Positions 49,769 through 54,481 of a DNA stretch of 61,059 nucleotides are shown piece by piece. Origin of the DNA: Craspedostauros australis (lineage: Eukaryota); contig JALAGF010005986.1 in the NCBI GenBank assembly GCA_030167865.1, positions 1-61,059 on the forward strand, written 5' to 3'. The notes below the pieces were generated by a model. The model did no database searches, was not told where the DNA came from, and saw only the letters and a program-made list of their open reading frames with translations. The translations under genes were made by a program, and so were the position numbers. The stretch's first letter is position 1. The number at the start of each line of letters is the position of its first letter.

Positions 49769-50698
49769 ATGAACATCGGACTGTCGGCGCTCTGCCTCCT
49801 TGGCGTGCTGGCTGAACTCACAGCAGGCTTCGTTACTCCATCCAGATCGCCGACATCGCCATCATGGCTAGCACCGTTGTCTTCCCTGGCCTCGTCCAGC
49901 CAGGATGACGTGCTGTCGAAGGCCGAAGAGGAGCACGCCCGTGAGGTATTCGCCATGGTGGACAAGGACAAGACGAACGACATCGACCAATACGAACTCA
50001 GCGATCTCCTCGACATGCTGGACATCTCCGCCGACAACGAAGAGTGCGAGGCGCTGTTTCGCTACTTGGACGTTGACGAATGCGGCAAGGTCGACGTCGA
50101 GGACTTCCTCCCGTGGTACTCCAGCGCTGTGGAGGCCGCACGTTCCTCGGCGGAGGCCTTCCAAGCGATCATCTGCAACCGCCGCACCGTGGGCAAGTTC
50201 GACAAAACGCCCGTCGCCGACGACGTGCTGCGACGTGCCATCAAGTGCGCCATATCCGCACCCAACCGCAGCGGAAGCGAGCCGTGGAGATTCATCCAGC
50301 TGGGGGCTGAGACTGTGGCCAAGGTAGCCGATCTCAATCGGGAACTCGGTGGAACCGAAGGGTCCTTCATGAGGTGGACCAACATTCCGGGTTGGTGCGT
50401 CGTCACCTGCTCCCTCATGGACGATGGATCTGACGAGCCTCATCCTGAGGACTTCAGGAGCGTCTCCTGCGCCATCCAGAATTTCATGCTCTCCATGTGG
50501 TCGGAAGGCGTTGGCAGCAAGTGGACATCTGGTCCTGTGCAGAAAACGGCCGAGTTCGCCAAGCTCTGCGGAGTGGACCAATCAAAGGAGGTGGTCGTGG
50601 GCGTTGTGTGGTACGGTTTCGCCCGCGGCGGGTTGCAAAATACGGATCGCAAACAACGCCAGAAGACAGTCGAAGATGTTCTCTCGAGTATGCCGTAG
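49769..50698 (+). CDS. EF-hand pair fused to nitroreductase (FMN-dependent, YdjA-like), with bipartite presequence
   Basis: Signal MNIGLSALCLLGVLAELTAG|F then an S/P-rich transit peptide; EF loops DKDKTNDIDQYE and DVDECGKVDVED; nitroreductase RRTVGKF, APNRSGSEPWRF, AIQNFML..GVGSKW. Confidence 0.9.
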   Translation: MNIGLSALCLLGVLAELTAGFVTPSRSPTSPSWLAPLSSLASSSQDDVLSKAEEEHAREVFAMVDKDKTNDIDQYELSDLLDMLDISADNEECEALFRYLDVDECGKVDVEDFLPWYSSAVEAARSSAEAFQAIICNRRTVGKFDKTPVADDVLRRAIKCAISAPNRSGSEPWRFIQLGAETVAKVADLNRELGGTEGSFMRWTNIPGWCVVTCSLMDDGSDEPHPEDFRSVSCAIQNFMLSMWSEGVGSKWTSGPVQKTAEFAKLCGVDQSKEVVVGVVWYGFARGGLQNTDRKQRQKTVEDVLSSMP

Positions 50699-52383: not shown

Positions 52384-54481
52384 ATGGTGAGTAACAACAC
52401 GATGTATGCCTTGGAATTAAGGTACTCTTCAATGTGAAATCATCATGCAACTCTCTGCGAAGAGAGAGTACCTGGCTACCCCCGCATGGAGCGGTGTCTT
52501 GCTTCGGTGTGGATACAGTCCCTTGCATGTACCGGCTTTCTTTCATCATGGTATCCTCGTACGGCCATGCTCGACAGCAAACCACATAACTATGTTCTGC
52601 GACACAAGTGTGGTGTGCTGCACTGTCCCCACAAGCGACATCGCTCACACACCAATGTCATTGCTTGTATATAATACGTATGTATAATACAATACACGCC
52701 AACGAACCAATTCCCCAATCCATCCATACACTTCACCACAGGCCGATAAAGATCCACAGCTCGTCAATGAGGAAGCCAAGAGCCGCAAGGACCGTCCAAC
52801 CAACTCCATGCACATTGGAGATGTCGACTTCGAGGTTGAGAACCCAGCGGACATCGAAGACGCCTCTTGGGGGGAGGTTCTGCAGACCTGCTGCTCTCAC
52901 ACTGCCGAGGAGTGGGCGTACGTGTTCTTGGGAGTCTGCACCGTCGTTTTCTTCCTCTACTTCTTCCTCGTCGGACTCGAGCTTCTCGGATCCGGGGCCA
53001 AGGTGATGGGTGGTTGCACCGCCGGAAGTTTGTTCGGTGATGAGACGAACCCAATCGCTGGGCTCATGGTCGGCATCCTCGCCACCGTCCTTCTCCAGTC
53101 TTCCTCCACCACCACCTCCATCGTCGTCGCCCTTGTCGGTGCTGATGCCGTCTCCGTCCGCCAGGGAATCTACATGATCATGGGCGCCAACATCGGAACC
53201 TCCGTCACCAACACCATCGTCGCCATCGGCCATTTGGGAGATGGAGACCAGCTCGAGCGTGCCTTCGCCGGTGCCACCGTCCATGATATGTTCAACTTTC
53301 TCTCTGTCAGCATCCTTCTCCCACTTGAGATCATCACCGGATACCTGAACGCTTTGACCAAGGCCCTCGTCGCCAACGCCGACACCGAGAGCGGTGACAA
53401 GTGGGAGGGACCAGTCAAGAAGCTCGTGTCTCCGCTTGGAAAGAAGATCATCAGCGCCAACAAGAAAGTCATCGAGGCCGTCGCCAAGGGAGGATCCTGC
53501 TCCGACTTCTACCCAATCAACTGCACCGACAACAACAATCCAACCAAGAAGACTTGCTCCAAGGTCGGACTCATTGAATGCGACAAGAAGACCGGAGACT
53601 GCCCAGCCTTCTTCCAAGCAGAGGCCAGCAAGAGGGACGACCAGATCTCAGGATTCATCATCTTCATCATCGCCATCGGAATCCTCTTCGTCTGCCTCTT
53701 CGCCATGGTCACTATCCTCCAGAAGATGCTCCTCGGAACCTCCACCCGCATCATCCACAAGGCCACCAACATCAACGGATACCTCGCCATCATGCTCGGA
53801 GCAGGAATCACCATGGTCGTCCAGTCCTCCTCCATCACTACGTCCGCCCTCACACCACTCGTCGGTATGGGAGTCCTCCGTCTTGAACAGATGCTTCCAC
53901 TGACCCTTGGAGCCAACATCGGAACCACCGGTACCGCCATCCTCTCCGCCTTCGTCACTGATGGAACCAACGCCCTCCGCGTCGCCCTTGCCCACTTGTT
54001 CTTCAACATCTCCGGAATCCTCATCTGGTACCCAGTCCCGTTCATGCGCAACGTCCCACTCATGGCCGCCCGTCAGCTTGGAAAGGGTACCCGCCTCTGG
54101 CGTGGATTCCCATTGGTGTACATCATCGTCATGTTCTTGATCGTCCCACTCCTCTTCCTCGGCCTCTCCTGGTTGTTCACCCAGGACAAGAAGTCCTTCA
54201 CCACGCTTGGAGCGTGCTTGACCGTCGCCGTCTTCTTCATCGTCGTTTATGTTGGCTACTACTGCCAGTTCAACGGCGGTAAGGAGGCCTGTTACGACAC
54301 CATGGTCGCCCGCCAGAACCGCCAAGAAGCCATCCAGGCCCTCCCAGAAGACATGGAGTACCTCAAGGCCCGCATTGCCGCCTTGGCCGAGCACACCGGG
54401 CTCGTCGCTGACGACGAAGACACGGAGATGCCTGAGAAGGAAGCCGACGCTGAGGTCGCCGAATCTGTCGGAGAAGCTTAG
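52384..54481 (+). CDS. Na+-dependent phosphate cotransporter (SLC34/NptA family), 2 coding exons
   Basis: Two QSSS motifs (LQSSSTTTS, VQSSSITTS), two GANIGT motifs and GATVHDMFN. Exon 1 is ATG 52384-52386, intron GTGAGT..CAG 52387-52741; exon 2 from 52742 is in frame with the ORF at 52808. Confidence 0.95.

Follow-up and report, generated by a model that had tools for sequence, protein, structure and literature searches.

An EF-hand–nitroreductase fusion with a plastid-type leader in diatoms: a candidate calcium-responsive flavin enzyme

Might calcium act directly on a flavin enzyme inside the diatom plastid? The question is raised by a 61,059-nucleotide stretch of the Craspedostauros australis genome (contig JALAGF010005986.1, positions 1 to 61,059 of the forward strand; hereafter 'the window'), where translation, Pfam and a genome search identify at 49769–50698 (+) an intronless coding sequence of 309 residues in which a leader, an EF-hand pair and a nitroreductase-fold domain follow one another. 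The original prediction, made from the sequence letters, had placed all of these parts in one open reading frame, which is what we find (309 codons uninterrupted by stops), and had proposed that stromal Ca2+ could control a reductase of quinones or nitro-compounds. Our own reading, to which we give a probability of about one half, is that the protein is a stromal flavin mononucleotide (FMN) oxidoreductase switched by Ca2+ under high light or H2O2 via its EF-hand pair. This reading builds on the architecture, conservation and fold of the protein together with a predicted dimer and its predicted contacts; stromal location, FMN binding, Ca2+ binding, gating, an electron acceptor and a trigger enter it as putative features.

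One gene joins the two domains

Both halves of the protein exceed their Pfam cut-offs: EF-hand_7 (PF13499) at residues 54–118 (E 1.2e-9, 38.8 bits against 30) and Nitroreductase (PF00881; E 5.9e-18, 66.1 bits against 23.5), the latter as the complete domain that had been predicted. A homologue search yielded 377 proteins, the best 120 of which cover 74–100% of the query at 48–63% identity, and 109 of these 120 listed homologues bear precomputed labels for both EF-hand and nitroreductase, so that the fusion is genuine. The named members are all diatoms (centric, araphid and raphid), from the genera Odontella, Pseudictyota, Rhizosolenia, Skeletonema, Fragilaria, Gedaniella, Thalassionema, Thalassiothrix, Entomoneis, Nitzschia, Cylindrotheca, Seminavis and Mayamaea; in databases the architecture is present as an automatic label and in one JGI name, 'Nitroreductase family/EF-hand domain pair'.

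Transcripts separating the two domains had been named as evidence that would speak against the prediction, and several of the homologues are translated from MMETSP transcripts, an observation that counts against separate transcription of the domains. In addition, the junction is crossed in one frame at 49 of the 57 metagenome loci containing both parts. We considered a chance or mis-joined origin of the fusion and excluded it on the homologue labels, the MMETSP transcripts and these one-frame junctions. RNA at the locus itself amounts to one contig (50398–51071, from one run) and is uninformative on the junction between EF-hands and enzyme. The genome holds a single match for the fusion (13 candidates scored), and no stand-alone YdjA-like paralogue was found among the few candidates scored. 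None of 275 candidates was a longer fused form, which is weak evidence from a search aimed at longer forms. At five split loci that we checked, a GT–AG intron found in some diatoms interrupts the gene directly behind EF loop 2, where residue 112 meets residue 113 (L058:10112-10218, L060:10211-10302, L061:2914-3005, L063:922-991 and L081:10211-10308); it is absent from the window's gene.

A leader of the diatom plastid type

The protein opens with a putative signal peptide (residues 1–20, 49769–49828, +), a hydrophobic stretch ending in T-A-G, and continues with a transit-like stretch (residues 21–45, 49829–49903, +) that starts FVTP, is Ser/Pro-rich and acid-free, and is predicted to be disordered (predicted local distance difference test, pLDDT, below 50 at residues 16–43). 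The cleavage site thus reads TAG/FVTPS, and the 25 residues after it include nine Ser, four Pro, one Arg and no acidic residue. By our own hydropathy and −3/−1 rule, which was used in place of SignalP or ASAFind, a signal peptide, a residue of the F/W/Y/L set at +1 and a transit-like stretch are all present, as had been predicted, and they are kept across the family. The +1 column of the alignment is F in 94 of 120 homologues (17 gaps), and the bipartite rule fits 89 of 104 full N-termini, compared with 19% of shuffles; these 104, with a Met start and at least 30 leader residues, were drawn from 126 proteins of the Arg type defined below, the others being short (17) or unparsed (5). Phenylalanine at +1 is an established pointer to the diatom stroma, and the protein is probably nucleus-encoded and imported into that compartment.

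A YdjA-like domain with a remodelled flavin pocket

Residues 131–309 (50159–50695, +) form a YdjA-like nitroreductase-fold domain according to Pfam, the closest solved sequences, Foldseek and VIA. The AlphaFold2 monomer (106 sequences, mean pLDDT 82) shows the alpha+beta fold of nitroreductases; its best Foldseek match is 2i7h of B. cereus (E 4.5e-10), followed by YdjA (3bm1), and in VIA structure alignment many nitroreductase-fold chains tie at Z 16–17, 2i7h among them (Z 16.9, root-mean-square deviation 5.4, 165 aligned). The YdjA-like minimal nitroreductases (3bm1 of E. coli, 2i7h, and 7tmf of K. pneumoniae) share the fold and are the best matches by sequence and by Foldseek, and they share the motifs RR[ST], P-[ND]-x-x-x-x-[EQ]-P-W and W-x-S-G, but identity is only 15–24% in structure alignments, and the diatom fusion adds an EF-hand pair, a plastid leader, a Gly-Gly insert, a His-to-Arg exchange and other pocket changes. 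No NCBIfam equivalog cut-off is approached by the enzyme domain: the YdjA model NF008088 scores 28.2 bits against 183, and BluB, FbiB and RutE reach 41.6 of 150, 38.3 of 249.55 and 15.5 of 152 bits (38–43 bits against cut-offs of 150–304 over the FbiB and BluB models). For the proteins P0001 and P0010, the ESM Atlas gave no usable match.

We compared pockets across 341 near-complete domains, in groups defined by residue 167: 126 Arg-type proteins, 137 short stand-alone relatives and 12 His-type EF-bearing rows. The R138-R139-T140 motif (50180–50188, +), which we take from YdjA to be the FMN-phosphate motif, has both arginines in 126 of 126 Arg-type rows, and R138, R139, K251, W252, G255 and R297 are each kept in 124–126 of these 126; their FMN roles are presumed by analogy with YdjA and NfsB. 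In the APNRSGSEPW loop (50258–50287, +), position 167 is Arg where all 137 short stand-alone relatives, as well as 2i7h and YdjA, have His, so that the His of the YdjA-like P-[ND]-H loop is missing here. Two further sites carry the signature of the clade, namely F229-R230-S231 (50453–50461, +; Y-A-A in stand-alone relatives) and Q258 of the flavin-ring motif KWTSGPVQ (50519–50542, +; T in stand-alone relatives). K/R230, S231 and Q258 occur jointly in 120 of 126 Arg-type rows, whereas even two of the three are found in none of the 137 stand-alone and none of the 12 His-type EF rows. Lid position 202 shifts from mostly R/K to mostly D in the Arg clade, with R retained in this copy. Finally, a Gly-Gly insert just before a basic C-terminal arm with the near-invariant R297 (50627–50665, +) is present in 136 of 143 EF-bearing rows, in none of the 137 short stand-alone proteins and in 4 of 57 longer EF-less ones, and so goes together with the EF pair.

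As judged from the alignment, a remodelled flavin pocket is fixed in the main diatom clade, and its changes probably arose once, as a fixed signature rather than by independent co-evolution. The enzyme domain is also the most conserved part of the protein, with a mean top-residue frequency of 0.79–0.81. The proposal of quinones or nitro-compounds as substrates finds no support in these comparisons: the nearest solved relatives are of YdjA type, the pocket residues are changed here, and E. coli YdjA is itself tabulated as low in nitroreductase activity in the part of PMC9638147 available to us. 'Nitro/quinone reductase' is a fold label only, and the natural substrate of YdjA was not found in the available portions of the papers on YdjA examined.

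Two side observations concern this domain. C160 (50246–50248) and C267 (50567–50569) hardly vary within the Arg clade, where 124 and 122 of 126 rows have them, and are atypical of stand-alone relatives, and the conserved C234 (50468–50470) faces its counterpart C234 of the partner subunit in the dimer model; thiol control through these cysteines is possible. Seven proteins (P0128, P0135, P0141, P0145, P0150, P0153 and P0275), most of them still EF-bearing, have a damaged flavin loop and may be pseudo-enzyme paralogues.

The EF-hand pair

The EF-hand pair (residues 54–118, 49928–50122, +) includes a conserved acidic linker at D85 and position 87, with D85 being Asp in 108 and Glu in 9 of 120 homologues, and AlphaFold2 predicts its helices at 51–64, 74–83, 90–100 and from 110 onward. 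Loop 1, DKDKTNDIDQYE (49961–49996, +), ends in E12 and passes a PROSITE-type pattern, with T5/N6 in place of the family norm S5/G6; loop 2, DVDECGKVDVED (50069–50104, +), fails it. The prediction of two EF loops had both sequences right, but the second loop is weaker than supposed: a Cys at ligand position 5 had been overlooked, which among 113 scored loops occurs in this protein alone. Given Cys5 and Asp12, the protein lacks a second canonical Ca2+ loop, and loop 2, family-wide the better conserved of the two, is degraded in this copy, in which loop 1 is a plausible and the likelier Ca2+ site.

Across the family, one or both loops conform to the pattern in 108 of 121 members (EF1 in 59, EF2 in 88), and in 102 of 119 one or both conform to a strict Glu12 rule. 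Two canonical loops are present in 8 of the 12 His-type forms, which suggests that erosion of the loops took place within the Arg clade. We also considered compensation between the loops, as Glu12 in EF2 is commoner where EF1 is lost (Fisher p 5e-5, in counts that are not independent of the tree); strong in raw counts, it was rejected as unsupported on the tree, where four well-supported independent pairs left the sign test uninformative. The EF helices and the exit helix have mean top-residue frequencies of 0.61–0.72, against 0.23 for the transit stretch.

A search of the same genome for a close donor of the EF module gave weak matches only. The nearest (E 5.6e-4), L168:56-2229 (+), is a membrane protein with internal EF-hands ending in F-x-x-W-Y, which we take to resemble a K+-dependent Na+/Ca2+ exchanger.

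A predicted helix and dimer that could couple sensor and enzyme

In the AlphaFold2 model a single continuous helix, residues 110–137 (50096–50179, +), runs from the exit of EF2 into the first enzyme helix and connects it with the RRT motif. A dimer of residues 48–309 was modelled with FMN and Ca2+ riding along, the FMN unscored, and gave an ipSAE of 0.84 (best control 0.00), with runs sharing at least 91% of contacts at a pLDDT of at least 89. In a calibration that is only roughly valid here, 20 of 30 true pairs attained the mark used, as did 1 of 23 monomers, and the pass may show likeness, because similar dimers have already been solved. The modelled interface lists helix residues 127–138 and the pocket positions 167, 229 and 230; more telling than the score, it also contains the EF-linker residues 85/87 together with the basic arm 295–299. 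On this model, linker residues 85/87 might make an acid–base contact with basic arm 295–299, and helix 110–137 might serve as a lever.

We hypothesize that the nucleus-encoded precursor would be imported into the plastid stroma and lose its leader, that the mature protein would form an FMN-binding homodimer of nitroreductase fold, and that electrons from NAD(P)H would pass to a small acceptor, with the added basic residues R167 and K/R230 suggesting an anionic partner or a preference for NADPH. Each EF-hand pair would be tied to the enzyme by the continuous helix, and since this helix is predicted to pack on the partner subunit and to end in the putative FMN-phosphate motif, Ca2+ binding could displace the flavin cleft and thereby alter activity. 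A stromal Ca2+ rise in high light or H2O2 would be the likely trigger, and the protein would then be a stress-switched redox enzyme. Both high light and H2O2 raise stromal Ca2+ in the accessible part of Flori et al. 2024 (PMC11663583), which names only KEA3 and DSP1 as EF-hand targets; for KEA3, activity requires the EF-hand (PMC9306478, in excerpt). A wider and more tentative version, which we think somewhat doubtful, would make this a Ca2+-gated member of the nitroreductase superfamily, derived from a bacterial YdjA-like enzyme, fused to EF-hands before the diatom–bolidophyte split, given a new active site in diatoms and acting as a direct target of high-light stromal Ca2+, in function the counterpart of green-algal calredoxin; in the literature searched we found no example of a described Ca2+-gated member of this superfamily.

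Weighing the alternatives

A number of observations weigh against a Ca2+-switched oxidoreductase. The monomer model has a predicted template-modelling score of only 0.64; close relatives without EF-hands exist (P0133 and P0134); several EF forms (among them P0150 and P0153) have lost the flavin loop; and the neighbours of 80 bacterial loci reveal no pathway, the commonest true neighbour, assigned by eye and not by Pfam, occurring at 13 of 80. To these we add the state of the loops. EF1 departs from the pattern in 62 of 121 members, position 12 of EF2 is Asp in 52 of 113, this copy has its Cys5, both loops satisfy the strict rule in only 20 of 119 proteins and neither does in 17, and the loops (0.49 and 0.57) are less conserved than the surrounding helices. 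Asp at position 12 favours Mg2+ in other EF-hand proteins. The loss of EF1 in about half of the family, the Asp12 of many EF2 loops, the 17 proteins with no strict loop and the better conservation of helices and linker surface than of loops recommend a serious rival, if on balance an unlikely one: the plastid FMN oxidoreductase would be active, but its EF pair would have a structural role or be occupied by Mg2+, serving stability or docking or acting as a light-linked sensor of Mg2+. Such a role sits less easily with the EF2 ligands, which are strongly kept (D1 in 112, G6 in 102 and D/E12 in 108 of 113), and with the preference for Glu12 in EF2 where EF1 is lost, tree-dependent though this is.

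The remodelled pocket could also be taken to mean that catalysis has been given up, leaving a flavin-binding sensor or scaffold of little turnover through which the Arg167 clade reports Ca2+ and flavin redox state to a partner protein. The loss of an otherwise invariant His, the substitutions fixed at positions 230, 231 and 258 and in the lid, the clearly degenerate EF-bearing paralogues and the weak activity of YdjA itself (PMC9638147, same excerpt) would suit it; we regard it as improbable, however, as no part of the protein is better conserved than the enzyme domain, and as the new residues of the pocket do not drift but have become fixed, an outcome that a new substrate would explain equally well. 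The original prediction had pointed out that the next gene downstream is a phosphate transporter, and that gene is indeed a Na+/Pi cotransporter (PF02690, E 1.8e-33). From this adjacency one could make the protein a component of a phosphate-resupply Ca2+ response, or an extra-stromal protein that sees cytosol-linked Ca2+. Phe at +1 points instead to the stroma. Furthermore, none of 80 related loci (only nine of them EF-bearing with at least 2.5 kb downstream) has an SLC34 Na+/Pi transporter gene as a neighbour, and according to the accessible part of PMC11663583, phosphate resupply (in P. tricornutum) and hypo-osmotic shock raise only cytosolic, not stromal, Ca2+. We have thus dropped the phosphate idea, which in either form seems to us very improbable.

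Relation to known sensor–responder proteins

The Ca2+-switched oxidoreductase that we prefer would have precedents. Calredoxin (CRX) of Chlamydomonas is likewise a stromal EF-hand sensor-responder joined to a redox domain and, with NDA2, serves as a precedent (PMC8318260, in part), but it combines four EF-hands with a thioredoxin and is confined to green algae, whereas the present protein has two EF-hands and a flavin enzyme, no thioredoxin match in Pfam and a distribution in diatoms and bolidophytes; the resemblance is one of analogy, not homology. KEA3, DSP1 and the EF-hand-Tic20 fusion (PMC5462543, in excerpt) show the same addition of an EF-hand pair to a plastid protein in the diatom/ochrophyte lineage, but they are a transporter, a PGR5-like protein and an import subunit, and here the recipient would be a soluble flavoenzyme. 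The earlier statement that nitroreductase-fold enzymes normally stand alone was too strong, as the peroxiredoxin–nitroreductase 4eo3 and the C-terminal domain of FbiB (4xom) are solved examples with an extra N-terminal domain; in these the fused partner is catalytic, and in the diatom fusion it is presumably a metal sensor.

Word searches of the accessible literature found no paper on an EF-hand–nitroreductase fusion, in keeping with the earlier remark that no characterized protein of this architecture was known, and the word nitroreductase is absent from Liu 2022 (PMC9546453), the Flori preprint and the PMC13187674 supplement. The fusion is real and conserved, apparently uncharacterized, and apparently applies the sensor-responder principle of EF-hand proteins to a flavoenzyme fold. 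It is a small soluble candidate effector of the diatom stromal Ca2+ signals recently shown in the accessible part of PMC11663583. It is widespread in diatoms, has one detected copy in this genome and is amenable to expression, assay and knockout, and natural controls are at hand in EF forms of the His type, in close relatives that lack EF-hands and in bacterial enzymes that stand alone. If true, our reading would bring allosteric metal control into the biology of the nitroreductase fold, and the fixed change in the pocket points to a new plastid substrate.

Spread and origin of the fusion

A wider search, run with the enzyme domain alone against 1.84 billion representatives and also with a profile built from 15 divergent fusions, recovered His-keeping EF forms, degenerate EF forms, EF-less algal-type forms and short stand-alone proteins. 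An EF-bearing form with the canonical His occurs in the bolidophyte Triparma laevis, and the best genome-titled stand-alone loci belong to Rhodothermales, Gammaproteobacteria and Planctomycetes. In a tree of the enzyme domain of 61 chosen rows, a branch (91/97) separates the ten Arg-type rows from all others. These ten belong to a larger starred group of 25 rows (97/95), which also contains Triparma, EF forms of the His type, degenerate EF forms and three rows without EF-hands. A shared origin of all EF forms is not rejected, though not demonstrated (p-AU 0.097), with P0180 and P0196 placed apart in the free tree. Taken together, these sequences suggest a bacterial origin and a fusion before the diatom–bolidophyte split, followed by duplication, losses and a remodelled diatom clade. 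The nitroreductase domain is enriched among horizontally acquired diatom genes (bioRxiv 2020.01.24.918219, in part).

Two EF-less proteins, P0133 (Amphora) and P0134, are nested among EF forms and keep an insert-like stretch in the C-terminal arm; they are probable cases of secondary EF loss and so natural controls. Four other apparently EF-less members of the Arg clade (P0123, P0125, P0129 and P0136) were set aside as probable partial gene calls, their N-termini breaking at the EF exit helix. In two algal-type proteins, P0179 and P0219, a YdjA-like domain lies behind an N-terminal region that by eye resembles a thiamine-binding/YkoF-type module. Recurrent neighbours of the bacterial loci look like lineage synteny: in one gammaproteobacterial group (L098, L102, L109, L113, L124, L139 and others) the stand-alone gene lies near CCA-adding-enzyme-like, NAD-epimerase-like and ferrochelatase-like genes (11–13 of 80, by eye).

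Other features of the window and genome

The genome contains two further nitroreductase-fold genes of a different type, L002:1090-2274 (+), the start of which resembles a signal peptide, and L003:1345-1926 (−). In the window, the Na+/Pi cotransporter gene (52384–54481, +) has an apparent first exon consisting of the ATG alone (52384–52386), followed by a GTGAGT donor, and its long open reading frame begins at 52808, so that the true N-terminus is spliced. Finally, 12457–34953 holds a series of long open reading frames (301–1277 residues), almost without Pfam match at E 0.001, one of which has PT repeats.
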